Positions 4,101 to 46,960 of a DNA stretch of 64,000 nucleotides are shown here, piece by piece. Source of the stretch: Okamejei kenojei (lineage: Eukaryota); the NCBI GenBank assembly GCA_035221665.1, contig CM069135.1:24242001-24306000 (forward strand), written 5' to 3'. The notes below the pieces were generated by a model, which was given only the letters and a program-made list of their open reading frames with translations, was not told the origin of the DNA and made no database searches. Both the position numbers and the translations under genes were made by a program. How positions within the stretch are numbered: position 1 is the stretch's first letter; each line of letters opens with the position of its first letter.

Positions 4101-5003
4101 GTGTTGTGAATAATGAAGTAGATTTTCAAGGTCTACAGAGAGATTTGGGCCATTTGGAAAAGTGGGCTGAAAGATGGCAGATGGAGTTTAATGCTGTTAA
4201 GTGTGAAGTGCTACATCTTGGCAGGACAAATCAAAATAGGACGTACATGGTAAATGGTTGGGAATTGAGGAATGCTGTGGAACAGAGGGATCTAGGAGTA
4301 ACTGTGCATAGTTCCCTGAAGGTGGAATCGCATGTAGATAGGGTGGTAAAGAAAGCCTTTGGTGTGCTTGGCCTTTATAAATCAGAGCATTGAATATAGG
4401 AGTAGGGAAGTAATGTTAAAATTGTACAAGGCATTGTTAAGACCAATTCTGGAGTATGGTGTACAATTTTGGTCACCTAATTATAGGAAGGATGTCAACA
4501 AAATAGAGAGAGTACAGAGGAGATTTACTAGAATGTTGCCAGGGTTCCAGCAACTATATTACAGAGAAAGGTTGAACAAGTTAGGTCTTTATTCTTTGGA
4601 GCGCAGAAGGTTAAGGGGGGACTTGATTGAGGTCTTTAAAATGATGAAAGGGATAGACAGAGTTGACGTGGATACGTTTTTTTCCCATTGACAGTAGGGA
4701 AGATTCAAACAAGAGGGCATGACATGAGAATTAAGGGACAGAAGTTTAGGGGTAACGTGAGGGGGAACTTCTTTACTCAGAGGGTGGTGGCTGTGTGGAA
4801 TGAGCTTCCAGCAGAAGTGGTGGAGGCAGGATCGATTTTAACATTTAAAAGTAAAGTGGATAGGTATATGGACGTGAAGGGAATGGAGGGGTATGGTCTG
4901 AGTTCAGGTAGATGGGACTAGGGGAAAACAAATGATCGGCACGGACTGGAAGGGCCGAGAGGGCCTGTTTCCATGCTGTAATTGTTATATGGGTATATGG
5001 TTA
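1181..5003 (+). mobile_element. CR1 LINE, 5'-truncated within ORF1, ORF2 frameshifted
   Basis: SGNH esterase ORF1 (IVIGDSIVRG, GTNDIG); APE endonuclease (YFNARSI, SETWL, GDFN, SDH); RT (PQGSVLGP, YADD); (GGTTATAT)-type tail; near-identical to 23812-28075. Confidence 0.97.
1975..4921 (+). pseudogene. CR1 ORF2 (endonuclease-reverse transcriptase), broken into four ORFs
   Basis: ORFs 1975-2907, 2951-4393, 4359-4691 and 4688-4921 are consecutive pieces of one APE-RT protein ending ...GRWD. Confidence 0.95.
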
Positions 5004-5809
5004 ACTACAAGAAGTGTTGTCACATGAGCGCAAAAATAGACAAGGAAATCACCGGCTGAATTCCATCTTACTGCCCTCTCCCATCTGAAAAAACAGCAAT
5101 CGTCTACATTGACCACATTTGGAAGAAGCATTCAAGATATAGCCAAGACCTAAAAGATCTAGCTGCAAGCAGAGCCTATGGTAGGTGGTGAAAGGTGATG
5201 ACTACATTACATTGTCAGATGTCCCAGAAGCACCAGACCGTTGCAGTCCTGGTAGGAGTGAGCATCATTGTGAGACAAAGCTTTGTCATCACCTTGAGGG
5301 CTCTTGCCACCTTGTTGAGTTCCAATTCCATAATACTAAAATAGGTACAGTATAGATCCAGCAGCTCAAAACATGACATTCATGAGACACTGGAGAATTG
5401 TATCCACTACTACCCATAACTTCATAGCGTGGCATATCCCTCACTCCGCCTTCACCATTAAACAAGGGAGCCAATGCTGGTTCAAAGCTAATGTTACAGC
5501 ACTGGACTACATATGTATTCTGCACAGACCTAAAATATTCCACCAATCAGCACCTTGCTTCTATATTTAGTCATTAAATAGCAATGGATAATGAACATTT
5601 GCAGGGAGAAGGTGGGACCAGGTACATTCTCATTCAAAACTATGTCAAAGTCAAAACAAGTGAAAGAAGCATTTGCAACCATCTTCTACAGGAAATGTTG
5701 GGTAGATGGCTTAGCACTATCTGAGGTCTCCACTGTTGCACTGGTTACAACAAAGGCGCTTATATCAAAGATTTGGATGAGGATGTACAAGGAATGTTTA
5801 GCAAACATG

Positions 5810-16216: not shown

Positions 16217-16396
16217 AATAGTATAATAGGTCTTGCAATCTCAGACGTGATTATTCACTTATCTTTTCAAATTTGGGCATAAAAAGAACTTAAGTGGGAC
16301 AGAGTAGATTCCGTGTTCTCAAATAGTTTATTTTGCATAAAATATAATTATATAGAATGTAGGTTTCAACAAACTCATTTTGTGCATCTCCCGTGG

Positions 16397-17968
16397 GTAG
16401 ACACAAAATGCTGCAGTCACTCAGCGGGAGAGGCAGCATCTATGGAGAGAAGGAATTGGCGACGTTTCGGGTCAAGACCCTTCTTAGTGCCCCACCTTTC
16501 TTCACTCCCTCTCCCTCCCCCATTCCCAGACCATCCTTTTCTCTGGTTCTACATTTCAGTCACATGTGCCTGGATAAAGGACTTCCTCACCAACCGGCCC
16601 CAGACGGTGAGACTCGGCCCCCACCTCTCCTCCACTCGCATGCTGAGTACCGGCTCCCCACAGGGCTGTGTGCTAAGCCCCCTCCTATACTGTCTCTACA
16701 CCCACGACTGTTGTCCGGTCCACAGCAACAACCGCATCGTCAAGTTTGCTGACGACACTACAGTAGTCAGACTCATCTCAAGGGGAGACGAGGCAGCCTA
16801 CAGAGAGGAAGTCCTGAAGTTGACAACCTGGTGCTCAGAAAACAACCTGGTTCTGAAAACCAAGAAAACCAAAGAGCTCATTGTTGACTTCAGGAGGCGC
16901 AGCACCGACTTAGCTCCCTTATACATCAACGGCGAGTGTGTGGAGAGGGTCTACACCTTCCGGTTGCTCGGCGTCCTCATCTCCGCTGACATCTCCTGGA
17001 CAGATAACATCACAGCGGTCATCAAGAAGGCTCAGCAGCGGCTGCACTTCCTGAGAGTCCTCAGGAAGCACAACCTGGACTCCAACCTGCTGCTGACCTT
17101 CTACCGCTCGTCCATTGAGAGCCTGTTGACATACTGCATTACAGCATGGTACGGCAGCTGCACCATGGCAGACAGGGAGAGGCTTCAGAGAGTAGTTAGG
17201 GCAGCACAGAAGATCATCGGCTGCCCTCTCCCCTCTCTGATGGACATTTACACCTCCCGCTGCCTCAGCAGGGCGAAGAACATTATCAAGGACAGCTCCC
17301 ATCCTGCATTTGGCCTGTTCAACCTGCTGCCCTCAGGAAGGCGCTATAGGTGCATCAGCACAAGGACAAATAGACTCAAGAACAGTTTCTTTCCAAAATC
17401 CATTATCTCCCTGAACTCACACATGCACAGACTTCACAGCCTAACCCCCGGACCTTCATCTATCCACCTACTGTAATTTGTACTGTAACTGTAGTTCTAT
17501 TTATCCATTGCCTTTTATAGATATGTACATAGCGTCGCAGAAACTGTGCACCTTATTCCCCCTCCCCCTTTTTGTTTTTACACTGAGAAGGAGCAGCTTT
17601 TAATCTCATTGTACATGTGTATAGTGACAATAAAAAGGCATTCATTCATTCACTCCTCACCTTCATTCCTTATCAGAGTTCACCATTTGCACCCTTTTGT
17701 CTTCTCCACCTCTAACCTTGGTTATGATCTCCACATGCCCTCTGAGTTAATCCCTCTCATTTCGATCCAATTATCACCAGGTCTTGCGTCACCTCTTCCC
17801 CCCACCTTTTTTTACTAACTATTTCTGCTCTACTCCATCAGTCTGAAGGGTCCCACCCCAAAATAGTGTCTGTCCACTTCCTTCACAGATGCTGCCTGAT
17901 CCGCTGAGTTCTTCCAGCAGGTTGTTTTATGTTCAAGACTTCAGCATCTGCGGTCTCTTGTGACTCCA
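16397..17968. mobile_element. Penelope-like element terminal-repeat remnants flanking the Rex1 insertion
   Basis: GACACAAAATGCTG...CTCAGCGGG...GGCAGCATC...GACGTTTCGGGTCAAGACCCTTCTT at 16397-16486 and an inverted degenerate copy at 17835-17968. Confidence 0.6.
16559..17652 (+). mobile_element. Rex1/Babar-clade LINE, 5'-truncated, inserted into a Penelope remnant
   Basis: RT motifs PQGCVLSP and KFADDTT; [15 protein letters not shown]; [11 protein letters not shown]; 3' hairpin, TGACAATAAA and (CATT)n tail. Reading frame open to 17476. Confidence 0.9.
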
Positions 17969-22646: not shown

Positions 22647-22974
22647 GAGGGTGTCGATCAGAATGAATAAAAAATATGGCAATTAGTAATGGGTTTATTT
22701 AAAGCAGATAAGAAATCCACCTTGTACCAAAATGTTAACATGTGCTAATGCTCCTTTCCACTTATCATTAATAATTCCTTTTACTTGCAGAGGGAGATTA
22801 GATGATAATACTGAAGGTTAATTTGAGATGGAGCAGTCATGAGACCTTTTACAAATATGTAAAGCACTAAGAGATTTGAACATCAATAGTTTTTAACTAT
22901 TAACCTGTTCACAGTATGTTTCTACCAATGCCAGTGCCTAAATGTCCCAGAACTGCAGGGGCAGTTAAAAGTCA

Positions 22975-23272
22975 GGGCCTGTCCCACTTACGCGATTTTT
23001 TTCGGCGACTTGCCGGCCCCCGTCATAGTCGCAGCAGGTCACTGAAAATGTTTCAAAATGTTGTAAAACCAGTGGCGAGCAGAAAATTGTACGATTCTTT
23101 GGGCGACTACTCACGACCATACAGGCGACACCCCGCGACATGTCGCCCAAAGAGTCGTACCTTTTTCTGGTTGCCGCTGGATTTTGAACATTTTGAACAT
23201 TTTCAGCAACCTGCTGTGACAATGGCGAGTGCCGGCAAGTTTCCGTAAAAATCGCGTTAGTAGGACAGGCCC
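22975..23272. mobile_element. MITE, PIF/Harbinger-like termini
   Basis: TIR GGGCCTGTCCCACTTACGCGATTTTT vs AAAAATCGCGTTAGTAGGACAGGCCC; same termini as 46961-47626; TSD not clean. Confidence 0.8.
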
Positions 23273-23811
23273 TTCATTTTTTGGCAAGTGAACTCACCAA
23301 TATCCAAGTCTAGGTAAGGAGGGCAGATTTCCTGCCCTTAGTGAGTCAAATGGATATTCACAGCAATCTAGAAGTTTTGTGCCAAGATAGGAATTACCCT
23401 AAATTCCAGATTTATTTATTCTTTTGTATTAAATTCTCCAGTTGCCATGTTAGGATTCAAACTTGTATCTCTGGATCGCTGATCCATAATTCTGGCTGCT
23501 ACCATTTGACCAAGGCTGAAGTAGAATAAACAAATTGATTATGTATAGAAAGGAACTGCAGATGCTGGTTTATACCAAAGATAGACACAAAATGCTGGAG
23601 TAACTCAGTGGGTCAGGGAGCATCTCGGGAGAAAAAAGATGGATGATGTTTCCGGTCGGGACCCTTCTTTATTGTTTCAACACCCAGGCATTCCCATTCC
23701 TTCCTGCACATCTAGAAAGCTCAACTGATTTTCCATTAGTTTGGATTTGGTGAATGAAAACTTTCAGCCAAGTTTTGCTAATGTAGATTCTGCTGGCTTT
23801 CAAACAGTCCT

Positions 23812-26800
23812 TTGGAGGAGGGGGAGGAGCGACACCCGACCGGTAAGGTTTAAAATCAAGCGCGGGGCTTGTTTTTTTCAGAGGCCCACAGGAGCCGTTG
23901 GAAGAAAAGGAGGAGGGGGAGGAGCGACACCCGACCGGTAAGGTTTAAAATCCAGCGCGGGGCTTGTTTTTACCGAAATCCATAACATTCCATTTGGAGA
24001 AGTGGGTTTTTTTTTTGAGGAAGCCGCTGATTGGTGGGAAGTGGACTAGGGAAAGCAGCTGATTGGCAGTCAGATTCCAGCAGTTTGTTGTGTACTTTGT
24101 ATTGTGTTGATATTGTATCCTGTGTAAGGGGGGAGTATGAAGGCCAGGGCAGTGTACTGTTCTGGATGTCAGATGTGGGAGGTCAGGGAATCTGATAGCC
24201 CTCCAGACATCCACATCTGCGCCAGGTGTGTTGAGATGGGGCTCCTAAAGGACTGTGTTAGGAACCTGGAGCAGCAGCTCGATGACCTCCGTCTGGTCAG
24301 GGAGAGTGAGGAGGTCATAGAGAGGAGCTACAGGGAGGTAGTCACTCCCAAACCACAGGAGGCAGACAAGTGGGTCACAGTTAGGAAGGGCAAGGGGCAG
24401 AGGCAGGGGCTAGAGAGTACCCCTGTGACCGTGCACCTGGAAAATAGGTACTCGGGTTTGAGGACGATTGGAGGGGACAGCCTAGCTGGGGGCAGCAACA
24501 GCGGCCGGGCCTCCGGCACAGAGACCGGCCCTGATGCTCAGAAGGGTAGCAAAAAGAGGAGGGCAATTGTAATAGGGGACTCTATAGTTAGGGGGTCGGA
24601 TAGGCGATTCTGTGGACGCAGTCGGGAGACCCGGATGGTAGTTTGCCTACCTGGTGCCAGGGTCTCGCATGTGTCAGAACGTGTCCAAAAGATTCTGATA
24701 ATGGAGGGAGAGGAGCCTGATGTTGTGGTACACATAGGTACCAATGACATAGGCAGAAAAAGTGACGAGGTCCTGAAGGGAGAATTTAGGGAGTTGGGGG
24801 GAAAGTTAAGGAGAAGGACCAAAAGGGTAACGATTTCAGGATTACTGCCTGTGTCGCGTGACAGTGAGAGTAGGAATGAAATGAGGTGGAGGATAAATGC
24901 GTGGCTGAGGGACTGGTGCAGTGGGCAGGGATTCAAGTTCCTTGATCACTGGGACCTCTTTTGGGGAAGGCATGATCTGTACACAAAGGATGGGTTGCAC
25001 TTGAACCCGAGGGGGACCAATATCCTGGCAGGGAGATTTGCAAAGGCTACTGGGGAGACTTTAAACTAGAAGGACTGGGGGGAGGGGCTAGGGGTCAGGG
25101 TGTGGGGCAAGATGCAGAGAAGGGAAGCACTCGGATCCAAAATGTAGGCGAGAAAGATGAAAAAGATAATAGACAGAGAATAAGGGATGGTGGGTTTCTA
25201 AAATGTGTATATTTTAATGCTAGGAGCATTGTAAGAAAGGTGGATGAACTTAGAGCCTGGATTGACACCTGGAAATATGATGTTGTGGCAATCAATGAAA
25301 CATGGTTGCAGGAGGGCTGTGATTGGAAACTAAATATTCCAGGATTTCGTTGCTTCAGGTGTGATAGAATTGGAGGGACCAGAGGGGGAGGTGTTGCATT
25401 GCTTGTCAGAGAAGATATTACAGCAGTGCTTTGGCAGGATAGATTAGAGGGCTCGTCTAGGGAGACTATTTGGGTGGAACTGAGAAGTGGGAATGGTGTA
25501 GCAACACTTTTAGGTGTGTATTATAGACCGCCAATATTGGAGAATTGGAAGAGCAAATATGTAAGGAGATATTAGTAGTAAGCACAAGGTAGTGATTGTG
25601 TGAGATTTCAATTTTCCAAAAATAGACTGGGAAACACATTCTGTAAATGGGCTGGATGGTTTGGAGTTTGTAAAATGTGTGCAGGATAGTTTTTTGCAGC
25701 AGAACATAGAGGTATCGACCAGAGAAGGGGCAGTGCTGGACCTCCTGTTAGGAAATGAGGCAGGTCAGGTGACGGAGGTATGCGTTGGTGAGCACTTCGG
25801 GACCAGTGATCACAATACCATTAGTTTCAATATAATTATGGAGAGAGTCAGAACTGGACCTAGGGTGGAGATTTTTGATTGGAGAAAGGCTAACTTTGAG
25901 GGAATGCGTAAGGATTTTAAAGGAGTGAATTGGGACACTTTGTTTCATGGGAAGGATGTAGAAGAGAAATGGAGGACATTTAAAGGGGAAATTGTAAGAG
26001 TACAGAATCTTTATGTCCTGTTAGGTTGAAAGGAAATAGTAAAAATTGGAAAGAGCCATGGTTTTCAAGGGAAATTGGACACTTGTTTCGAAACAAGAGA
26101 GATATCTACAATAATTATAGGAGGCATGGAGTAAATTAGGTGCTAGAGGAGTATAAAGAATGTAAAAAGAATCTTAAGTAAGAAATTAGGAAGGCCAAAA
26201 GAAGATATGAGGTTGCTTTGGCAAGAAAGGTGAAAGTAAACACAAAGGGTTTCTACAGCTATATTAATAGCAAAAGGATAACGAGGGATAAAATTGGACC
26301 ATTAGAGAACCAGAATGGACAGCTATCTGCAGAGCCAAAAGAGATGGGGGAGATATTGAACAATTTATTTTCTTCGGTATTCACCAAGGAGAAGGATATT
26401 GAACTCTGTGAGTTAAGGGGAAAAAGTAGAGTAGCTATGGAAACCATGAGATTCAAAGAGGAGGAAGTACTGACACTTTTGAAAAATATAAAAGTGGACA
26501 AGTCTCCAGGTCCTGAAAGGATATTCCCTAGGACATTGAGGGAAGTTAGTGTAGAAATAACAGGAGCTATGACAGAAATATTTCAAATGTCATTAGAAAC
26601 GGGAATAGTGCCGGAGGATTGGCGTACTGCGCATGTTGTTCCATTGTTTAAAAAGGGTTCAAAGAATAAACCTAGCAATTATAGACCTATTAGTTTGACG
26701 TCAGTGGTGGGCTAAATTAATGGAAAGGATACTTAGAGATAATATATATAAGCATCTGGATAAACAGGGTCTGATCAGGAACAGTCAACATGGATTTGTG

Positions 26801-28075
26801 CCTGGAAGGTCATGTTTGACAAACCTTCTTGAATTTTTTGAAGCGGTAACTAGGGAAATTGATGAGGGTAAAGCAGTGGATGGTGTCTATATGGATTTCA
26901 GTAAGGCCTTTGACAAGGTTCCCCTTGGAAGGTTGGTTAAGAAGGTTCAATCTTTGGATGTTAATGGCGGAGTAGCAAGATGGATTCAACAGTGGCTGAA
27001 TGGGAGATGTCAGAGAGTAATGGTGGATGGCTGTTTGTCAGGTTGGAAGCCAGTGACCAGTGGGGTGCCTCAGGGATCTGTGTTGGGTCCACTGTTGTTT
27101 GTCATGTACATCAATGATCTGGATGATGGGGTGGAAAATTGGATAAGTAAGTATGCAGATGATACTAAGATAGGTGGTGTTGTGGATAATGAAGTAGATT
27201 TTCAAAGTCTACAGAGAGATTTGGGCCTTATGGAAAAGTGGGCTGAAAGATGGCAGATGGATTTTAATGCTGTTAAGTGTGAAGTGCTACATCTTGGCAG
27301 GACAAATCAAAATAAGGACGTACATGGTAAATGGTAGGGAATTGAGGAATGCTGTGGAACAGAGGGATCTAGGAATAACTGTGCATATTTCCCTGAAGGT
27401 GGAATCGCATGTAGATAGGGTGGTAAAGAAAGCCTTTGGTGTGCTGGCCTTTATAAATCAGAGCATTGAATATAGGAGTAGGGAAGTAATGTTAAAATTG
27501 TACAAGGCATTGGTAAGCAATTCTGGAGTATGGTGTACAATTTTGGTCGCCTAGTTATAGGAAGGATGTCAACAAAATAGAGAGAGTACAGAGGAGATTT
27601 ACTAGAATGTTGCCAAGGTTCCAGCAACTATGTTACAGAGAAAGGTTGAACAAGTTAGGTCTTTATTCTTTGGAGCGCAGAAGGTTAAGGGGGGACTTGA
27701 TTGAGGTCTTTAAAATGATGAAAGGGATAGACAGAGTTAACGTGGATACGTTTTTCCCATTGAGGGTAGCGAAGATTCAAACAAGAGGGCATGACATGAG
27801 AATTAAGGGACAGAAGTTTCGGGGTAACGTGAGGGGGAACTTCTTTACTCAGAGGGTGGTGGCTGTGTGGAATGAGCTTCCAGCAGAAGTGGTGGAGGCA
27901 GGATCGATTTTAACATTTAAGAGTAAAGTGGATAGGTATATGGACGTGAAGGGAATGGAGGGGTATGGTCTGAGTGCAGGTAGATGGGACTAGGGGAAAA
28001 CAAATGGTCGGCACGGACTGGAAGGGCCGAGAGGGCCTGTTTCCATGCTGTAATTGTTATATGGTTATATGGTTA
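23812..28075 (+). mobile_element. Near-full-length CR1 LINE (5' UTR, intact ORF1, disrupted ORF2)
   Basis: Duplicated 5' UTR block; ORF1 24137-25069; ORF2 fragments 25102-27993 with APE and RT (YADD) motifs; (GGTTATAT)n tail. Confidence 0.97.
24137..25069 (+). CDS. CR1 ORF1p: N-terminal Cys-rich zinc finger, coiled coil and SGNH esterase domain
   Basis: CSGC...CARC, leucine heptads, GDS / GTND / DGLH SGNH blocks; uninterrupted 310 aa. Confidence 0.92.
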   Translation: MKARAVYCSGCQMWEVRESDSPPDIHICARCVEMGLLKDCVRNLEQQLDDLRLVRESEEVIERSYREVVTPKPQEADKWVTVRKGKGQRQGLESTPVTVHLENRYSGLRTIGGDSLAGGSNSGRASGTETGPDAQKGSKKRRAIVIGDSIVRGSDRRFCGRSRETRMVVCLPGARVSHVSERVQKILIMEGEEPDVVVHIGTNDIGRKSDEVLKGEFRELGGKLRRRTKRVTISGLLPVSRDSESRNEMRWRINAWLRDWCSGQGFKFLDHWDLFWGRHDLYTKDGLHLNPRGTNILAGRFAKATGETLN

Positions 28076-28124
28076 AATGTGTGATTCACTCAAGTATGAC
28101 ACCATTTTGGCATTGCACTAACAT

Positions 28125-30439: not shown

Positions 30440-31875
30440 ACACCCTGAGCTATCCAATTGGTTCACAACGGTCCATTAAAGATGAGTATAGGTGATGAAA
30501 AATCCTTCATGATAATTCTTAACAATGGTGCCCTGCGAGGATGTGTTCTTGGCCTCTTGCTATTTTCCTTCAGCACTCACAACTGTGCAGCCAAATTCGG
30601 CTCTAAAAGCATTTACAATTTTGCAGAACTAGTGGGCCGGATCTCGAAAAGTAATGACATGAAACTCAGGAAGGAGAAAGAGAGCTTAATAACATGGTTT
30701 TGAGACAACAAACTATCCTTCAATGATAGACACAAAATGCTGGAGTAACTCAGCAGGTCAGGCAGTATCTCTGGAGAAAATGGATAGATGATGTTTCTGG
30801 CTGGGTCCCTTCTTCAGACTGATTGTTGGGGGATGGGAGCAAGAAAAGACCAGGACAAGCCTGAGGTCATTTGTTGCCAGCCCTGGTTTGTCAGAGTATT
30901 TTCTTGCTTCCATCCCCCCCCCCCCCCCTCCACAATCAGTCTGAAGAGGATCCCGACCCGCAACTTCACCTATACATTTTCTCCAGCGATGCTGTCTGAC
31001 CCGCAGAGTTACTCCTGTTTTACGTGTCTATCTTTGGTATAAACCAGCGTCTGTAGTTCCCTTTTATTACATAACCACTCCTTCAATGTCCGCAAAATGA
31101 AGGAGCTAGTTATTAACTTCAGGAGGTGATGTTGTGTACAAGTCAGCATTAATGGTGCCAAAGTGTAAATGGTCAAGAACATCATGTTCCTAAGTATCAC
31201 CAGTAATTTCACTTGGACCAACTACATTGAAGCCACAGCCAAATTAAAACACGCTAATGCCTTTACTTCCTCAGATGAATAAGGAAGTTTGCCATGCTTC
31301 TAACGACTTACCAACTTCTACAGATACATCGTAGAAAGCATTCTATTGGGGTGCATCACAGCTCAGTTTGGCAACAGTTCTGCCCAAGACCACAGGAAAT
31401 TGTAGAGAGTTGTAGATGTCACACAAACCAGCATTCTCCATCACACAAACTGACCTCTTCCCAATCGACTCCAATTTACACTTTACACTGCCGAAGGAAA
31501 CCAGCCAACATAATCGCCTTCTCTCCCATTTCCTTTTCTTCCCTCTCCCATTGGTACAAGATACAAAAGCTTGAAAGCTCATATAACTAAATTCAAGAAC
31601 ACCATCTTTCCCACTGTCATCAGACTACAGACAGTTCCCTTCATAAGCTAGGGTGTCATTTCAGTCATCCAACCTACCTTGTTGCAGACCTGCACTTTTT
31701 TTTAAAATTACACTTTTTGTGTAACACTATCTTCTGCACTGTTACTATCCTCTTTCCACTACAGGTTGTACTTGTTTATGGATTTATTGTAATCACACGT
31801 AGTCTGATTTGACTGGATTGCATGCAAACAAAGCTTTTCACTGTATCTCAGTACACATGGCAATATTAAACCGAT
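30440..31875 (+). mobile_element. Old Rex1-like LINE fragment
   Basis: Degenerate GALRGCVLGLLLFS (RT PQG region); AAGGAGCTAGTTATTAACTTCAGGAGG; 3' hairpin TTTCACTGTATCTCAGTACACATGGCAATA. Confidence 0.7.
30726..31060. mobile_element. Penelope-derived fold-back element (two inverted terminal-repeat copies)
   Basis: 30726-30832 is the reverse complement of about 30925-31032. Confidence 0.75.
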
Positions 31876-36000: not shown

Positions 36001-36486
36001 GATTCACTATCCGTGTGCCTGATCCACAATCCGTGTGCCTGATCCACTATCCGTGTGCCTAATCCACAATCCGTGTGCCTGATCCTCTATCCGTGTGCCT
36101 GATCCACTCTCCGTGTGCCTGATCCACTCTCCGTGTGCCTGATCCACAATCCGTGTGCCTGATCCTCTATCCGTGTGCCTGATCCACTCTCCGTGTGCCT
36201 GATCCACTCTCCGTGTGCCTGATCCACTATCCGTGTGCCTGATCCTCTCTCCGTGTGCCTGATCCTCTCTCCGTGTGCCTGATCCTCTATCCGTGTGCCT
36301 GATCCACTCTCCGTGTGCCTGATCCTCTATCCGTGTGCCTGATCCACTCTCCGTGTGCCTGATCCACTCTCCGTGTGCCTGATCCACTCTCCGTGTGCCT
36401 GATCCACTCTCCGTGTGCCTGATCCACTCTCCGTGTGCCTGATCCACTCTCCGTGTGCCTGCTCCACTCTCCGTGTGCCTGCTCCA
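36001..36486. repeat. 20-bp minisatellite, 24 units (consensus GATCCACTCTCCGTGTGCCT)
   Basis: Perfect 20-bp period with an invariant CCGTGTGCCT half; diverged CTGATCCAGTGT-like units extend left to about 35430. Confidence 0.98.
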
Positions 36487-36559
36487 GTGTGTGTGTGTGT
36501 GTGCCTGCTCCAGTGTCCGACTGATCCAGACGCTACATGAATGAACGAGCGTCTGCCTG

Positions 36560-37150
36560 GGTGTCCCGGTTGTTAATGTCTGCCTGTGCTCCCCCACCCC
36601 CCAGTCCCTAGATGTGTCGGCGAGTGCCCATGTGTTCCACTGCCTGTCAGTGCTCGCAAGGGCCGGGGGCCGGGGGCCAGGGGCCGGCTCCAGCAGCCTG
36701 TCCGGGGACGGATCCCCGAGGCTTCGCCGCCTTTCCCGAGCAGGCAGGCTGGGAGCCGAGGCCCAGCACACAATCTTTTCTTCAAGCTGAGAGAGAGAGA
36801 GAGAGAAAATAATAATAATAATAATAATCCTCACCTTCCTGCTGGTCCCGTTGCCCAGATAAATGTAATAGGCGATCCCCAGCACCCAGAGGAGGGCGAA
36901 GCATAGGAGGATTCTCGACTTTCTTCGCATAGTTTCGAGCGGGATGGGAATGAGGAGAGCGAGGCGGAGGAGCAGGCCGGATCGGCACTGGCGACGAAAC
37001 GACGCTCAGCATCCATCAGCGAAGAGCCGCGCAAGCTGGCGGCGCGCAAGCTGGGCGGAGGTCAGGGGGTAAAGGGTGCGCGCGCGGGGGGAGGGAGGGG
37101 AGGGCGCGCAACTGCCGACCGAGCGAGCGACCGGCCGAGCGACCGATGCA
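36560..37150 (-). promoter_or_regulatory. GALNT2: CpG island / GALNT2 promoter and 5' UTR
   Basis: Dense CpG outside recognisable repeats; GGGCGG box, GCGCGC motifs and GGGAGGGAGGGGAGGG tract around exon 1; AT-rich on the upstream side. Confidence 0.8.
36835..36930 (-). CDS. GALNT2: Polypeptide N-acetylgalactosaminyltransferase 2, coding exon 1 (cytoplasmic tail and type II TM anchor)
   Basis: [32 protein letters not shown] closely matches the vertebrate GALNT2 N-terminus ([24 protein letters not shown]...RK); phase-0 donor AAG|GTGAGG at 36835/36834; lies in a CpG island. No downstream exon recognised in 1-36834. Confidence 0.93.
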
Positions 37151-37414
37151 GCCTTCCAGCACCAAACTTACAAAAAACAAGCACCAGGATCATTTTGCAG
37201 TGCGTATAATGAGGAAGTTCATTCGACACTACATACAAACTTCAAGTAATTACCCTTTTTGCGCAGAAATATTGGGATGATTTCGCACTGCATGACTAAA
37301 ACACTTATTTTTTCCTAGATAATTACGCACCGTGTTTAATATCGACTATTATGTTGAATACAATTCCGAACTACATTAATTAAGAGCGCTGCTGTGTTTC
37401 TTTGAATGGAGACG

Positions 37415-37582
37415 CTACAATACAATATACAATGCGATATTTTATTCCATGTCATTTGAACCTCAGCGAAGCTCAAACGAAACTCCGTTTCCACAGCCAT
37501 ACAAAGACAATTCCTACAAAACATACAAACAATTCAATTTACACAAACATCCATCACAGTGAATCTCCTCACTACGAAGGCA
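37415..37582 (-). mobile_element. 3' half of the GC-rich hairpin retroposon family
   Basis: Reverse complement matches 56510-56670 (CACTGTGATGGATGTTTGTGT, GAAACGGAGTTTCGTT...GAGGTTCAAATGACA). Confidence 0.75.
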
Positions 37583-37977
37583 ATACATTGTATTGTAGTA
37601 AAGATAATTAGACATTACGTATTATGGAAATAGTAAATAATAGTTCTACACTGAATATAATAATTCAACATTACCTACAATAATGAATGAACTAATTTAC
37701 CAGTGTAAGTATTTTACATTTAAGATAGATACAATAGAAAAATACAATATATAAATCATTTTACAACACATATTAACAATTCTGAATTGCAAAAGAATGA
37801 ATTTAATTCTCTGGTGTAACTGATAATTCTGCTTAACATATTGTAATCTGGAATTAAAGATACATTGTGTAAACTAAGGTTGATCCAGCATTGAATATAA
37901 TTTATGTTACATAGTTTATAGCCCACTCCCATGGACTGAAAAAAAATTAAAAATCTTATAATAATGAAGATAAAGCT

Positions 37978-38119
37978 TCTTCTTTCTTCCTTCGTGTGGC
38001 GTGCACAGGCTAAAGTTGTAGGACAACTTATTCTATTTGATCTTCCGTTTGTGCACGTCAAGTTGATTGCATTAGTCGAAACAGGGCGGACCACGTGAAG
38101 GTTGCAATCTTCCGCCCCT
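37978..38119 (-). mobile_element. Short retroposon with a 5' HDV-like ribozyme (copy B)
   Basis: 10-bp TSD AGATAAAGCT (37968-37977 and 38120-38129); head GGGGCGG AA GATTGCA ACC TTCACGT GGT CCGCCCT G TTTCGA CTAA TGCAATC; GAA-rich tail. Confidence 0.85.
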
Positions 38120-40749
38120 AGATAAAGCTACATTATATATATATAAATAATATAATATAATTGTAAAAATCGAAGATAATAACAATAATTCTGTGTCATG
38201 GAATGATGTTAATTCTTGATGGAATGAAGTGAATCTATTTACATTGCAAATGATCAGGAAGAAAGTGTTTTGCATTTCAAGTAAACGAGCTTGACTTTTA
38301 TAATGAAGAAACTAAGTGGCTAGATGCAACCACAGTAGCAAGCTCCTTGTGGAATACAACCAGAGCTATTCCAGTTATAATGAGGTATTATTGCTTAAAA
38401 AATGGATGCTGAAATTATATAGGGGAGGAGGGGGAGGAGAAAGTGGTGGAAGAGTATCAAAGGATCTGTAAAGGCTGATGAAGAACAGCATCTTCATGGT
38501 TCTGTTTTTTATACAAGAGAGGCAGATCCTTCAGAGCTACTGGCAGCTTCCCCAGCAAGTTACCAGGGTGCTCATCATAGTAGTGCGTGAGTAATAATTC
38601 TTCAGGTCTGATCTGCCCACTCCCGTGGACTGAGGTGAAAATGGGATGAAGTCAACTCTCCTTGCCTATGCAGCTTCGGCAGTCTTCCTATTGCAGCAAT
38701 GAACAGCAAACTGTAAGGGATGGAAAGGATCAACAACATCTGCCTAGAATAATCCTGAGGCTAAGAAGTTGACAGTAACTCTGACATCCATGGACAAACA
38801 AAACCGGGCACATCTGTGAATGTATATTTGAGATTGCAGGACATTGCAGATATCTGTGAGGACAAGAGATTAGTTGGTCCTTTAAATCACGCAAGTTCAG
38901 ATCAGTGATCTGGAATATCAAACTTGGGGGGAGTATTGGGTTTTTCACCATTATCCATATAATCTTGGAAAGCCTTACAACAGGTAAAAAGGTCTGGGGA
39001 TAATAAAAATCTCATCGAAAGAAAGAGTTCAATGTTGTGAAAGGCACCATGGTTTGTGCACAATAGTGCTGTCTACTGAGTTTTCTCAGCACCATACCAA
39101 GTTTTCCTTGGGGTTTCTATGTTGATGCTAGTGTGGCAATGGTTTTAGTTGCTGATTAAAAAAAAATAAAGGATCATTTGGATAGAACAATGGCAGCTGA
39201 AATTTAATACAAAACACACCAAAAATATTATATTTATAATGGGTTCATCAGGATCTCATCCCAAAGTGCAAAATAGACAAAAAACAAAGCTTCAAATGGG
39301 ATCAATTAACATAATCTGCCTTGGTGATTTTTGTTAAAGGATAACTATGGGCCAGGTGAATTAGTTGGACAGCACAAAGGCAGCAGTTCCATCAGGACCT
39401 TGGGAGCTGTGTGAAATTTGCACATTCTCTAGTAATTAATTGGATACTGTAAATTATTCTCGAAGGGGAAGTGGCAAAGGGATCAAAGATGTGCTGTTAT
39501 GCATGTGAGAGAGTGCCAGGCTTCAGGGAAATGCAGGGAATAGCCTTGTTCTATTGAACTAGAGAGCCAGCAGGAATGTGATCGGCTGAATGGTCTCCTT
39601 TTGCAGCATAATAAGTAAATAAATGTATCTTGATTGCATGTCCACCCGAGTGTATAATGAACTTTGGTTTAATTTGCCAACAATGGTTCCATACGATGTC
39701 AGCCAAATTATGTGCTTCTCTCCAGAGCATGCTTATGGCAACTCAAGCAGTGGCATTTTACCATGGTCCAGCATTTGACAGTCAAGCAAGTAAGAACATT
39801 ATTTTAATATTCAATAGATTCAGATGGTATAATCTGATCTTAGTTCGCTGACACTTTTTCAAGTTATTGTAGCTTTCAATGTATATTAAAACAGTTACTG
39901 TTCTCTGTCAAATTGCAGAGGCTTGCAAATCTATTAAAAAGGTTTATATGATTATGGTTCATTCAGATGGAGTCTCTGGTGCATGAAATCTCCAATGCAG
40001 TTTTAATGTATGTCCAATATTTTAATTATTAGCTACTTATTGGAACCCCAGCTATAATTAATTGCATCTGATTGGATAATAAAAAAAGTAATGGACAGTT
40101 ATTGCATGAGTGATTTCAATGCATATATTCAGATTTGCATATTTTCATCCTTTTATTACATGATGATTTTGCCAAAGCAGGCTGTGTGAGTGTGCAGTAG
40201 ATATTTTCTACTAAAATTCGTGAATGTAGCTAAATGGTATCACTTAACAAATTCAGAACTACTTATCATGATTATAACCAAAACTGATCGTCAGTGATCA
40301 GTGGTAAGTCCTACTTCTACCTCCTTGCTGATGAGTGAGAGGAGATTGATCAGATCGTAGTTAGTCGGAAAGTATTTTTTTGGCATATTATTTATGGGCA
40401 ACTTTTTGCATTATTGGATGGATGTCACTGTTGTAGTTGTACTAGGACATTTTGGTTAGAGGCCAATCCTGTTCTGGATAACATCTTTATTACTAGATGT
40501 GATCTTGCTGGAGCCTACAGCCTTACCAACACAGCTAGTCATCTCTTGACATAATGGTAACCAAATCAAATTCATTGAGTGCAATGGAGACACAAGAGAT
40601 TGCAGATGCTGGAATCCGGAGCAAAAAAGTAAATTGCTGGAGGAACTCTGTGGGTCAAGTACCATCTGTGGGGAAAAGGGATAGTTTACGTTTTGTACTG
40701 TAAAAGCCTTGTTCTGTGCAATCATCTGACATACTTTACCAACACTGAA

Positions 40750-41796
40750 GATAGAAATTAGGTGCAGGAGTAGGCCATTCGGCCCTTCGAGCCTGCACTG
40801 CCATTCAATATGATCATGGCTGATCATCCAACTCAGTATCCTGTACCTGCCTTCTCTCCATACCCCCTGATCCCTTCAGCCACGAGGGCCACATCCAACT
40901 CCCTCTTAAATATGGCCAACGAACTGGCCTCAACTACCTTCTGTGCCAGAGAATTCCACAGATTCACCACTCTCTGTGTGAAAAACGATTTTTTCATCTC
41001 TGTCCTAAAAGACTTCCCCCTTATCCTTAAACTGTGACCCCTTGTCCTGGACTTCCCCAACATCGGGAACAATCTTCCTGCATCTAGCCTGTCTAACCCC
41101 TTAAGAATGTTGTAAGTCTCTATGAGATCACCCCTCAATCTTCTAAATTCCAGCGAGTACAAGCCGAGTCTATCCAGTCTTTCTTCATATGGAAGTCGTG
41201 CCATCCCAGGAATCAGTCTGGTGAACCTTCTCTGTACTCCCTCTATGGCAAGAATGTCTTTCCTCAGATTAGGAGACCAAAACTGTACGTAATACTCCAG
41301 GCGTGGCCTCACCAAGACCCTGTACAACTGCAGTAGAACCTCCCTGCTCTTGTACTCAAATCCTTTTGCTATGAATGCCAACATACCATTCGCTTTCTTC
41401 ACAGCCTGCTGCACCTGCATGCCTACTTTCAATGACTGGTGTACCATGACACCCAGGTCTCGTTGCATCTCCCCTTTTCCTAATCGGTCACCATTCAAAT
41501 AATAGTCTACCTTCCTGTTTTTGCCACCAAATTGGATAACCTCACATTTATCCACATTATACTGCATCTGCCATGCATTTGCCCACTCACCCAGTCTATT
41601 CAAGTCATCCTGCAGCCTCCTAGCATCCTCCTCACAGCTAACACTGCCCCCCAGCTTCGTGTCATCCGCAAACTTCGAGATGTTGCATTTAATTCCCTCA
41701 TCCAAATCATGAATGTATATTGTAAATAGCTGGGGTCCCAGCACTGAGCCTTGCGGCACCCCACTAGTCACTGTCTGCCATCCTGAAAAGGACCCG
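40750..41796 (-). mobile_element. CR1 3' fragment with an open RT C-terminus
   Basis: ORF 40833-41771: [30 protein letters not shown]. Confidence 0.95.
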
Positions 41797-42105
41797 AAGA
41801 TAGTGAATCATGAATCGATGTTTAATATTCTACCAAGTCAGTAATGCGATTTGGTGGTCATTTATTGCATTACTATTGCAGAACTTGTTGTGCACAAATT
41901 GTTTTCACATGTACCAACATTAGAACAATAATTATGCTCTAAAGCAGCTTAGTGACTGTGAGGTAGTCATTAAGGACTATCATTAAGTTAGAACACCTCA
42001 CAATTCCTGCGATCTGCTTGTTTAGGATTGTGGTGAGGGTATGCATCTTAATTCACAATTCTGCTTTTGTGCAGTTAGCTCATGATGATCATCAGCTGAG
42101 TTCAA

Positions 42106-42159
42106 GGGGTGGTAGATTGCAACCTTCACGTGGTCCGCCCTGTTTCGACTAATGCAATC
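42106..42159 (+). ncRNA. Minimal HDV-like self-cleaving ribozyme (predicted)
   Basis: P1 GGGGTGG/CCGCCCT with G1.U wobble; P2 GATTGCA/TGCAATC; P3 ACC/GGT; L3 TTCACGT; J4/2 CTAA with candidate catalytic C at 42149. Confidence 0.75.
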
Positions 42160-42253
42160 ATCTCGACGTGCATAAACAGAAGATCAAAAAGAACAAGTTG
42201 TCCAACAACGTTAGGCTGAGCACGCCACACAAAAGAAGAAGAAGAAGAAGAAG
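42106..42253 (+). mobile_element. Short retroposon with a 5' HDV-like ribozyme (copy A)
   Basis: 15-bp TSD ATCAGCTGAGTTCAA (42091-42105 and 42254-42268); (AAG)n tail; ribozyme fold at 42106-42159. Confidence 0.9.
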
Positions 42254-43526
42254 ATCAGCTGAGTTCAAAAAGGCTGTCCTTGATCATAAGAATTTGTCTA
42301 TTCAGTCCTTCAGTTCCTTTAAAAAGCATCAGTGGCATCATAGATTTCATCAAATGCAGAAGTGGTGGCTGATGTCATGACCTGACATTTTTATGTCAGT
42401 AATCATAGGAAGCAGCTTATTAATGCAATTGAATTCTTGTCTGCGCTGGAAGCCTGTGGAATTGCTTGTGGTTCTATATATCCACATTCATGATATCAAA
42501 GTACGTCATACTTTCACAATAATTGTAACCCATGAAAAAATGTGTTGGGCAGCCTCACATGTTGCTGACAGTTTCCCATAGGGAATTCGATGGAAATAAG
42601 TAATCCTTCACTTACTTCTTGCACCAGTTTTGCAGAGTTGGGCATACAATTTCCTGTTTTTGCTGGGAAGGATCCAGGAGTGTATAAATTAAAGGCTGTG
42701 GTCATTCTGCCAGCTCCTGGCAACATTTCAGCTGTGGAGCCTACCCAGAGCTCTGTTTCAATCATAGCTTAGTCAGCCGTATTTTTACTTCTCACTCATT
42801 CACTGTAAAAACATGAGCATAGATATTAGCTGACACTTCAGCGATCTTTTGAATAAGTGTTGCCCTGTTGGAAATGCTGTCTTTCAGTCTCTTACAAGTG
42901 TGGGTAAATAGTGCTGTTGCATTACTTTAAGAAAGTGCAGCATATTATCCCCTTACGACCCGAGCAATATTCAAACCTCAGCCAACATTACTAAATTATA
43001 TTATCATATTCCTGAACATAGCTTTGCACAAAGTAGCTCCTGAGTTTCCTAAATTACTTTGCTGAGTACTTCATAGACTATATAATTGACTATAAACATA
43101 TCTAAATTCCTGAGATCATGAAATACATCATATAAATCCAAATTTTTCATGATTTATTTCCCATATGTTATCAAGACAAAGAGGCCATAGCTTTAAAGTG
43201 AGAGAAAGAAGTTTTAAAGGGAATTTGAGAGGAAAGTTTTTTTACATTTGGAATAGTAAAATCTGAAACGGACTGTCAAAGGATGCGGTGGAAATAGATA
43301 CAATCACTATATTAAGAGGCATATGGATAGGCCTTTGAATAGGCAAGACATAGATACTTGCTCCATAATGTGGGCAAAAGGCTCAGCACAGACATGATGA
43401 GCTGAAGGGCTTGTTTCTCTGCTATACCACTCCAAGATCCAAAATCAATGGATCATTATTAAAATATCTGCAAGTTCTTAAGATGGTGATCATACCAGCA
43501 GAATATTAATCTTAAAGGCTAATGAG

Positions 43527-44509
43527 TAGCCAGGATTTTACCATAAATGCCATGTGCCTATTCATGCCTTTTTTCATGATTTCACCAGGATCATGCCTTT
43601 TTCATGATCGAGTGCCTAAATCAGCCTTTTTTGCCATTTTGCTAAAAGCTTGTGCTATTTTCTCTAGTTGTACTGTGATTACAATGACGTTTTCTATGTT
43701 AACACATTCATATTAATGTCATTATTAACATAGTATAATTTACAAGAAAAGTTCCACCACCGGGGTGACCGCCAGCGTCGGTCGTTCATTCGTTCGTGCC
43801 GCTGCCCGCTGGTTCAGTCTTCTCTAATATCTATCTAAGAAAGAACTGCAGATGCTGTAAAAATTGAATGTAGACTAAAAATGCTGGAGAAACTCAGCGG
43901 ATGAGGCAGCATCTATGGAGAGAAGGAATAGCCACGTTTCGGGTCGAGACCCATCTTCAGACTGATGTGGGGGAGGCGGTGGGGAAAAGAAAGGAAGAGG
44001 TGGAGACAATAGGACTAGGAGAGCTGGGAAGGGGGAGGAGGGAGAAGACAAGGACTATCTAACATTCGAGAAGTCAATGTTGATATCGCTGGGGTGTAGA
44101 CTACACAAGCGAAATACCCAAACTTGTCCCCTCACTACATTTACTGCTGGCTCCAGTCGCAAATCTGAGTTTTTGAGTATGTGTGCAGCTATTACAATAT
44201 ATATTAATGATTTGGACGAGGGGATTGAATGCAACATCTCCAAGTTTGCGGATGACACGAAGCTGGGGGCAGTGTTAGCTGTGAGGAGGATGCTAGGAGG
44301 CTGCAAGGTGACTTGGATAGGTTGGGTGAGTGGGCAAATGCATGGCAGATGCAGTTTAATGTGGATAAATGTGAGGTTATCCACTTTGGTGGCAAGAACA
44401 GGAAAGTAGACTATTATCTGAATGCTTTTTCATGCCTTTTTTGTAATTTTATTATGCCTGTTTGCCTGCCTATTTCAGAGTTTTTTAATGCCTAAACATC
44501 CTGAGTCTG
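43527..44509. mobile_element. hAT-like non-autonomous DNA transposon containing Penelope and CR1 fragments
   Basis: 8-bp TSD CTAATGAG (43519-43526 and 44510-44517); imperfect TIR TAGCCAGGATTTTA vs CAGACTCAGGATGTTTA (right end, reverse complement); repeated subterminal ATGCCT motifs. Confidence 0.7.
43835..44120 (-). mobile_element. Penelope-like element 3' end (ORF C-terminus and terminal repeat with hammerhead core)
   Basis: FRLCSLHPSDINIDFSNVR* resembles the Penelope ORF terminus (FRLGSLxPxGMNIxFS); CTGAAGATGGGTCTCGACCCGAAACG on the minus strand near 43935-43962. Confidence 0.75.
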
Positions 44510-45187
44510 CTAATGAGAAACAAGTCCATAGTCACTCTGTTTCCAATAGTTCCAGCTAAGCCAGGTCTGTGTTGATAACACTTTCAAGTATTTTATTCTT
44601 TATGGCTATTGACTGAGTTGACGGTTCAATTGTGAACTAACTCCAAATCCTTTAATGTCTTTATTTAACTATAACTCTATCTATCTTAGATTTAAAATTA
44701 GCTATAGACCCGACTTTGATCATTTTCCATTTGTGAAAGAGTTCCAAATTTCCTAATTTGTTTCTTAATTTTCCCAAAACGTCTGGCTCTAACATCAGGA
44801 TTTACTCCCAGACTCTCAAACAGTTGCCACTGTGGCCAGCCAATTCTAATGAAACAAGTGGTGCAGAAGATGGGATGTGGTAGTGGAGTGCATTGCAACC
44901 ATTGCAATCTCAATCTCCTCTTGCAATTCTCAGTGCATGCATAAATGTGTCATCTAGTGTGTCTGGTCCAGGGCTGAGTTTAGGAGATCAGGATGACCAT
45001 AATTGGAGTCACATATGCTGTGGTTAGAGTGGGAATGAGCAGGGCTTAAGTAAAGGCGGTGATCAACCAAGGATTGGAGAGGAGAGGCGCAGGGTAATGC
45101 CCAAGGATAATGGGCAACAGCAAGTTTAATGGTGGAGCTTAGGTGCTGCTGCAGATCAAAGACTCCATCAGGTAACATGGGAGATTT

Positions 45188-45312
45188 GGGGTGGGAGATT
45201 GCAACCTTCACGTGGCCCACCCTGTTTCGACGAATGCAATCAACCTGGCGTGCACAAGCAGAAGATCAAACAGAACAAGTTGTCTTACAACTTTAGGTTG
45301 TGTACGCCATAA
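45188..45312 (+). mobile_element. Short retroposon with a 5' HDV-like ribozyme (copy C, tail eroded)
   Basis: GGGGTGG GA GATTGCA ACC TTCACGT GGC CCACCCT G TTTCGA CGAA TGCAATC followed by the shared 3' body. Confidence 0.8.
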
Positions 45313-46960
45313 GACTTAACTTGCCTTTACAGGCACAGGCAATGACCAGACCTCTAAATCATGTGCTGGCCCTTCATGCCAAACAGCCCGCAATGGAGAC
45401 CTAGTCTACTTAAACCCATCCAACGTTGACATAATCTCTTTGACATGCTGACACTCTTCATTTATGAAGTCATACTTTATTGTCACATGTGACAGGTCTC
45501 AGTGAAATTCTTTGTTTTGCATACTCAAGGTATGCAAATAGTCACCACATAAAGGGAGCGGACAAAGTTACAAAGTATTCCATGCCAGGTCCTCCTTATC
45601 TCTTGCTATATCTATGGACAGAAAAAAAATAGTTGTGAATGATTTGGTTAAGGAGCGTGAATTTACATTAAATTAATTATCATATTTTTCCAATTGTGGA
45701 ATATAGCTGCAATGTTGTACTTTGAAAAGTAATTCTCTGAATGTAAAACGTTAAAAAAATATCCTGATCCTTTTTGACATTTCCTGTGCCATTGTTGGAA
45801 AGGATACAGACATCTGGAAATGCAGTGAAGGAGTAGGGAAGCTCTCTCTAACAAAATCCGCTTTCTGATAAAATGCTTTGATTTTTTTGCCTTATGCAAT
45901 ATACTTTTTCCTCAGAGAGGCAACCACAAGACCTCATGACAAAATTTCTGACCCAGGAACCACGAAGATGCCTGCATTATCTACATCATGACTTCTGGAC
46001 ATATCGCCATCCAATCCACTCTGGCACCTTATTGAATCTGGACGCAAAATACTGACAGGAAAAGAAACACAGCACAAAGTCCCAGCAAAAAGAAAACCTT
46101 TCCAACAAATGTCTCACAGCGTATAGTACTGGTATTTCCTGGCATCTGTTGAGAGATTCTTGGTTTATTTGTCAGAAAACGCCAAGACTTCATCCTGGAG
46201 ATAAAGGAGTTAATTAATTGCAAATGCAAGACACTCTAAGACTGAAAGCACTATCACAGCTCAAGAGAGAGAGAAACAGGTTTGCAGAGGATCCTGTCTA
46301 CTTTCTTGAAGCCCAAAGCGACTATGTATGTTAGATTCAGTTTGGCACAAGCATGAAAATAATTATAACCCTTTCAACTTGTATTGGATTGGGCCATGGT
46401 TATGGAGTGGTTGATTGGGTTCAGAACAGGTTCCAATTAACTATCGCTGGCCCAGGTTTGGATTGGCTATAGTTCAGTCGGATTTGGATTTGCATGGTTA
46501 AGTCAGGTTTAGATTTATTGCAATCAGATTGGATTCAGATCAGCTATTTATTTTGTATTTGATCGGATGTGTAATTCACAGGATTTGAAAGCTGAATTTG
46601 AGCAAGAAACTTGTAATTGGAGAACAGATGGTGACGATCAAGGCTACACAGCGACATGGAATCTTCATCCTCACAGACTGATCCACAACAGGCCAAATCC
46701 CGGTGCTGAATGGGATCAAACAAGGCTTTGTCATTGCACCAATCCTCTCTTCAATCTTCCTTGTTGTGATAGTTGACCTTATCTTGAACCTCCACTTGAG
46801 TGGGTCAGTGGACAGGATGAGCAGTAAACTGTTCAACCTTCATCGCATCCACTCCAGAATCAAGATCATCCCAACCGCGGACATCGTGCTTATGCATGTG
46901 CTTAAGTTCAAAACATTGAATCCTCTATGAAAATGTATACAATTATGGATCTAATACTAA

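Follow-up and report, generated by a model that had tools for sequence, protein, structure and literature searches.

Introduction

Three copies of a short repeat lie in the stretch of Okamejei kenojei DNA analysed here (64,000 nucleotides, hereafter called the window), and they raise the question of how a sequence that encodes no protein can be dispersed with constant ends, and whether its 5′ end could be set by an RNA that cuts itself out of a longer transcript. The original prediction described the repeat as a promoter-less retroposon with an HDV-like ribozyme at its 5′ end and a structured 3′ body, and it located three copies in the window, all of which lie exactly there (Table 1). Its assignment to the non-autonomous retroposons that spread by target-primed reverse transcription (TPRT) also stands, given the target site duplications (TSDs) and the GAA tail together with the lack of an ORF. 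Here we describe the predicted fold of the element, its origin from a LINE of the same genome, its relatives, and a possible connection with the CPEB3 ribozyme of mammals.

Anatomy of the Element and Its Predicted Ribozyme Head

Table 1. Copies of the element in the window and the parts of copy A
Feature	Position	Strand	Basis or remark
Copy A	42106-42253	+	148 bases; 15-bp TSD on both sides, (AAG)n tail
Copy A, left TSD, 15 bp	42091-42105	+	Sequence and TSD test
Copy A, head: predicted 54-nt P4-less HDV-like fold	42106-42159	+	Sequence, descriptor, LINE match, covariation
Copy A, P1	42106-42112/42135-42141	+	Predicted fold
Copy A, P2	42115-42121/42153-42159	+	Predicted fold
Copy A, P3	42122-42124/42132-42134; L3 42125-42131	+	Predicted fold
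Copy A, P1.1	C42127-G42142	+	Predicted fold
Copy A, candidate catalytic C	C42149	+	Predicted fold
Copy A, remaining part of LINE 5′ UTR	42160-42177	+	BLAST to element position 72, probably ~79
Copy A, junction segment, absent from LINE	42178-42197	+	Letters between the joints
Copy A, LINE-derived 3′ part: last ORF codons, stop codon, short 3′ UTR	42198-42230	+	LINE match
Copy A, (AAG)n tail	42231-42253	+	Sequence
Copy A, right TSD	42254-42268	+	Sequence and TSD test
Copy B, young subfamily	37978-38119	-	One extra base (38119) precedes G1 (38118)
Copy B, 10-bp TSD	38120-38129 and 37968-37977	-	TSD test
Copy C, older subfamily (J4/2 CGAA)	45188-45312	+	3′-truncated at 45312; P3 mismatch

The head had been proposed to follow the order of the HDV double pseudoknot, and P1, P2, P3, L3, P1.1 and J4/2 do read as claimed, with C42149 as the candidate catalytic base; in copy C the first P3 pair is an A·C mismatch. 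In the numbering of the element, the 54-nt head consists of a 7-bp P1 that includes G1·U36, a 2-nt J1/2, a 7-bp P2, P3, a 7-nt L3 and the pair C22-G37, this one G-C pair and a U·U making up P1.1, while a 6-nt stretch replaces P4 and J4/2 reads CUAA or CGAA. An HDV descriptor had no match in 10.0 Mb of sequence resampled by dinucleotides; in 834 kb of real sequence (a 770-kb random sample and the window) it matched three times, each time at a copy of the element. When another base was required in place of the catalytic C, T retrieved a single decayed copy, and A and G retrieved none. Among 69 copies collected from the genome, the core bases C44, U20, G25 and A47 are present in 65, 67, 64 and 65, respectively. 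Pairing is preserved throughout the family as anticipated, each pair being kept in 64-69 of the 69 copies with almost no two-sided changes, and the variation at position 5 of P1 offers little evidence of covariation, as U·G is found there in 59 of the 69. An Rfam search of the window, the element and the partner LINE yielded no HDV-family match, the gathering cut-offs of RF00622 and RF00094 not being reached. The head, 54 nt long, is likely to be a minimal HDV-like ribozyme, with its predicted cut in the RNA directly 5′ of G1. The weak P1.1 counts against activity, although a fast ribozyme with a U·U pair at this place has been reported (PMC13635239, available part); also against it, 1-nt J1/2 spacers allowed little activity in another ribozyme, the accessible text giving no report on 2 nt for that construct (PMC4908430), and in crystals of the CPEB3 ribozyme the same L3 opens and dimerises (bioRxiv 2022.09.22.508989).

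The structured 3′ body fares less well. Its 10-bp stem (GGCGTGCACA/TGTGCACGCC) is complete in the older subfamily only and near complete in copy C, whereas copies A and B carry an A·C mismatch, beside which copy A has two further changes in the stem. Folding energies, which cover nested folds and not pseudoknots, are ordinary in copy A (z 0.44) and copy B (z -0.23), with a z of -2.0 in copy C, so that a functional structured 3′ body is only weakly indicated. The LINE-derived 3′ part is likely the signal recognised by the reverse transcriptase (RT), and the junction segment may partly repeat, as a short duplication, the end of the 5′ UTR. Neither a tail nor a TSD was found at the ends of copy C.

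Origin from a Vingi-Type LINE

An autonomous-type Ingi or Vingi partner sharing both ends with the element had been suggested, and such a LINE was found in the same genome. A first degenerate RT-motif pattern (141 matches, control 0) led to Vingi-type families that were rejected as partners, their 3′ ends being unlike that of the element; a second pattern (35 matches, control 0) reached the partner family, for which a search returned 772 candidates. Its 3′ end matches element positions ~93/100-134 in 28 of 30 loci (L171-L200, BLAST), and a full-length copy, L202, matches positions 1-72 at 87.5% and 98-134 at 86.5% identity, with 3.04 kb between the two matches. The first ~72-79 nt and the last ~35-42 nt of the element match the termini of an APE-RT LINE that is 3.04 kb long and has a single ORF, and because the partner shares both of them, the element is best explained as its internal-deletion derivative. 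This bipartite origin from LINE ends is close to certain. When the 5′ region of the LINE was searched for, 15 of 30 loci extended into the ribozyme, with 5′ limits at positions 1 to 13, and no shared sequence was seen upstream of G1 among the 30.

The partner is collinear with P0001, a database protein of 1,019 aa, with tblastn pieces 46-80% identical, and Pfam recognises APE, RT and a weak C-terminal zinc motif, and no RNase H, in P0001, P0008 and P0109. Since a compact single ORF with APE and RT and no RNase H is the Vingi architecture according to the accessible part of PMC13708176, the LINE would be classed as Vingi-type by architecture, there being no labelled Vingi or Ingi reference among its protein matches. 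All partner copies examined are broken and none was seen intact, the longest stop-free RT frame among L171-L203 spanning 423 aa. Just past the ribozyme, the sequence of the 5′ UTR is the complement of part of the 3′ UTR (window 42164-42174 and 42217-42226; UTRs of L202). The match covers 10-11 bp in the old subfamily, and 8 bp with one further mismatched position in the young subfamily and the LINE, where end-to-end pairing across 3 kb is possible.

Public sequencing runs contain the same joint. In four of four runs, from different studies, contigs connect one LINE end directly to the other and omit 2,910-2,979 bases between them, and loose contig ends accumulate at G1 in the three large runs. 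The 5′ interior of the LINE is covered several hundred to a thousand times less deeply than its ends, depth here not being equal to copy number. Words of the element occur in 23 runs from 10 studies and 7 organisms, all of them contigs and one on record as RNA, and the four runs above are among these 23; in a run guessed to be RNA, the contigs extend upstream of G1, which speaks neither for nor against cleavage, and contigs do not make RNA 5′ ends visible.

Copy Number, Ends and Subfamilies

The genome assembly comprises 2.76 Gb in 1,141 contigs. A copy-A query returned 1,770 candidates and a query with the 3′ half only returned 834, and 40 of each were scored. A random sample of 77 stretches of 10 kb (770 kb), taken at round coordinates of the larger contigs, contained seven element matches at E <= 0.1, all seven full length, which corresponds to about 25,000 copies in the genome (Poisson 10,000-52,000). 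Over all loci, 135 BLAST hits were obtained, of which 82 span the middle of the element and 69 remained after duplicate removal; most of the 53 hits left out were partial matches or ends of the LINE, so that the count does not cover very short 5′-truncated copies.

The predicted uniformity of the 5′ ends is borne out, as the first base lies no more than 3 nt from G1 in 68 of the 69 copies, among them all 22 that came from the random, incidental and window sources, in which no 5′-biased query was used. A TSD of at least 8 bp (range 8-22 bp) flanks 57 of the 69, compared with 0/69 in a swapped-flank control. Where the TSD is exact (46 copies), G1 directly adjoins it in 38, and the other eight have 1-5 extra bases before G1, in no case a lone extra G. 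The base before G1 is T in 34 of 65 copies, which suggests a target preference or microhomology.

The element could also be regarded as a collection of ordinary 5′-truncated LINE tails whose fold is due to chance, in view of the LINE origin of its last ~35-42 nt and of the partner LINE existing mostly as 5′-truncated copies. This is scarcely credible: 17 of the 18 new copies retrieved with the 3′-half-only query begin at G1, the matches of the random sample are complete without exception, and shuffled sequence amounting to 10 Mb produced no descriptor hit.

Two subfamilies are distinguished by 10 of 125 positions, copies A and B being of the young type and copy C of the old one; two of the differences lie in the 54-nt head and eight in the other 71 nt, a bias of the expected sign on numbers too small to be weighed. 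The youngest element copies look younger than any partner copy examined, the best young copies (among the best hits) being 1.2% from their own majority and the partner copies at least 3.7% from theirs. Of the seven randomly sampled copies, only two retain all pairs and core bases. Inversions of the 5′ end that resemble twin priming were seen in one copy of the short element (L055) and in the partner-LINE copies L253, L254, L255, L257 and L262, and they often end within the ribozyme.

Sister Families and Covariation

HDV-like heads were found in seven other LINE or short-element families. Twenty heads from six families were aligned with MAFFT (360 cells), leaving out F4, which has a long P4 and a 1-nt J1/2, and F2, which has an odd register. 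Pairing is present in 94.2% of the 360 cells, which count related copies and not independent events, and two-sided changes occur in 14 of 18 pairs across the six families. The covariation score of 0.665 was reached in none of 500 shuffles, a test that relatedness inflates, and slid controls scored 0.04-0.15; the stretches had been cut by the expected fold, and several of them were taken from the Rfam CPEB3 search. The compensatory changes lie between families and are nearly absent within the element family. A C occupies the catalytic position in 26 of 28 family representatives, and this C and the A of J4/2 are kept in the element and in six other sister families as the stems diverge. Selection has very probably acted on the fold of the head in the source lineages.

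One of these families, F8, is a third bipartite short element (L333-L336, L338, L340; about 1512-1680) whose head lacks P4 and has a 6-bp P1, and whose 3′ end matches the L142 LINE family. It provides a second, independent P4-less head, in which five of the seven P2 pairs differ from those of the element and are still paired. The second bipartite ribozyme-headed short element, of ~165 nt and with a long P4 (L304-L311, about 1438-1610), derives from F4 (L124, L301, L302) and has 346 candidates.

The family F2 (L271-L290) differs in that U stands at the position aligned to C75 of HDV in 20 of 20 copies and P2 is in a non-canonical register, yet the 5′ boundary is sharp. Its head is possibly a dead ribozyme carried by a successful LINE, and uniform ends therefore do not require cleavage.

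Proposed Mechanism and Its Rivals

We consider it quite probable that the element, put together from the two termini of a Vingi-type LINE, spreads by the following mechanism in full, ribozyme cleavage included. Pol II would transcribe a copy by read-through, from an internal promoter, or both; the ribozyme would then cut 5′ of G1, leaving a unit-length RNA with a 5′-OH that retains its own head. The LINE protein would bind the LINE-derived 3′ end in trans, and the bound RNA would be copied by TPRT. With a length of only ~135 nt, almost all new copies would be complete and inherit the ribozyme, and this inheritance by near-complete copies would explain why the element outnumbers the full-length LINE by orders of magnitude.

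The main rival shares the bipartite origin and differs on the 5′ end, which would be set by an internal Pol II promoter at +1, the fold being slow, vestigial or mainly protective. It gains from Pr77 of L1Tc and NARTc, described as internal promoter and ribozyme at once (PMC3383444, available part), and from F2, in which the boundary is sharp with U at the catalytic position; on both grounds the term "promoter-less" of the original prediction lacks support. The weak P1.1 and the missing P4 of the element point in the same direction, whereas the retention of the catalytic-position C and the J4/2 A across six other sister families, despite the divergence of their stems, argues against this rival. 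An extra 5′ G is a mark of capped templates. None of the 46 exact-TSD copies has a lone one, which also speaks against the promoter, although the test is a weak one. We judge this rival unlikely on balance, and an internal promoter may coexist with cleavage.

A SINE of Pol III type derived from tRNA or 5S, with a superficial likeness to a ribozyme, is very improbable. In its favour are a stretch near position 5 that loosely resembles an A-box and the TTCGA found at 39-43, but the best boxes (A-box with two mismatches, B-box with one) belong to the commonest class in shuffled sequences (525 of 2,000) and are thus at the level of chance, and the head is the 5′ end of the partner LINE itself. The claimed lack of a tRNA head agrees with ARAGORN, which reported nothing over 37000-46000.

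Relation to Known Systems

The class to which the element belongs is already known from NARTc, RIME, SIDER, the R2 SIDEs and bipartite Vingi derivatives. NARTc, RIME and SIDER, of the L1Tc/ingi clade of trypanosomatids, are likewise short, non-coding and dispersed with TSDs, and have their ribozyme-bearing 5′ end and their last ~30 nt in common with an APE-RT LINE; the cleavage site of Pr77 is at +1, as is the predicted site of the element (PMC3383444, PMC4035085, available parts). The element differs from them in its vertebrate host and in a partner without RNase H, which is Vingi-type and not Ingi/L1Tc, and its predicted P4-less head has 54 nt in contrast to the 77 nt of Pr77 (PMC3383444, PMC4035085). 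The R2 SIDEs of Drosophila combine a 5′ HDV-like ribozyme with a LINE 3′ end through internal deletion, as the element does, and use TPRT in trans, as is proposed here; however, R2 is of the RLE type and specific to a site in the rDNA, while the element is of the APE type and dispersed in tens of thousands of copies (PMC3414825, available part). Bipartite derivatives such as those of Vingi-1_EE similarly retain only the two ends of a LINE, and bipartite non-autonomous LINEs are recorded in the RTE, Ingi, Vingi and R2 clades; Vingi is absent from the ribozyme-bearing clades listed in the accessible part of that source (PMC5786205). The minimal P4-less HDV-like and theta ribozymes resemble the head in having a short loop for P4 and the catalytic C first in J4/2, but nearly all of those described in the available text lie beside tRNAs in gut phages, whereas the head caps an animal retroposon (bioRxiv 2023.06.13.544163).

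In the literature searched, we found no Vingi ribozyme, no mention of this element and, for the class to which it belongs, no vertebrate or minimal-fold case; earlier key papers, supplements, Repbase or Dfam may describe the element or Vingi ribozymes. If the proposed reading is true, ribozyme-capped retrotransposition extends to the Vingi clade, and minimal HDV-like ribozymes gain a eukaryotic role together with tens of thousands of natural variants. UTRs of Vingi-1 are in use in gene-writing templates (PMC13708176, available part), and a self-cleaving 5′ module of 54 nt would therefore bear on template design.

A Link to the CPEB3 Ribozyme

In a search of the genome with RF00622, 59 matches were scored and 30 of these exceeded the gathering cut-off (best 66.8 bits), against none in 14 control genomes, those named being all prokaryotes; the F3 and F4 heads match at E ~0.001, below the cut-off. 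The 30 loci above the cut-off (L312-L341, for instance L313:1501-1568 -, L314:1501-1568 - and L312:1511-1574 +) are 5′ ends, and the families to which they belong, Vingi-type or derived, number at least four. In L317 and L337 the head leads into a Vingi-type ORF, and the similarity of L312 and L315 to L317 extends along 240-260 nt. Nearest to CPEB3 is a group (L313, L314, L318, L320, L323, L332, L341) that adjoins pieces of the L130-L133 LINE family, and in L313 the head is joined to the 3′ end of that family. A search for a full-length copy of F6, the family closest to CPEB3, returned eight loci, none of them uninterrupted and full length. Counted by eye, L313 agrees with 44 of the first 46 positions of the CPEB3 consensus, and L314 with 56 of 67, the P4 stem and a P2 pair with a compensatory change among them; such identity in the stems is hard to reach by convergence because the same positions vary freely between families.

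The element itself shares with the CPEB3 ribozyme the same L3, a one-pair P1.1 with U·U, the G1·U wobble and the numbering to position 38 (RF00622; PMC8233481, bioRxiv 2022.09.22.508989, available parts), its L3, G37 and U38 agreeing with the CPEB3 numbering (bioRxiv 2022.09.22.508989). The two differ in the sequences of P1, P2 and P3, and the element has no P4 and no Rfam match; the CPEB3 ribozyme, moreover, is single-copy and intronic, and is reported only from mammals in the accessible parts of PMC8233481 and bioRxiv 2022.09.22.508989. The sequence matches suggest that the mammalian CPEB3 ribozyme may be a domesticated retroposon end, an origin from a transposon of which the literature searched held no account. 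It seems rather likely that HDV-like ribozymes, active P4-less vertebrate forms included, cap the Vingi-type LINEs in general, and that the CPEB3 ribozyme of mammals would be one such 5′ end, domesticated after insertion into the CPEB3 intron of an ancestor of mammals.

Other Features of the Window

The genome from which the window comes contains many CR1-like LINEs, and two copies in the window (1181-5004 and 24279-28076), 3.8 kb long and 96.6% identical, have ORF1 and APE-RT frames. Another LINE clade is represented by an RT frame of 397 aa at 16283-17476 (+), which we take to be Rex/Babar-like. Palindromic, MITE-like repeats of ~300 bp lie at 22974-23273 and 30721-31036, and a weak Rfam match to mir-5881 (23082-23167) falls inside the first of them. 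A frame with a signal-anchor-like first exon, presumably GALNT2-like, is found at 36007-37005 (-), with copy B ~1.5 kb upstream on the same strand.
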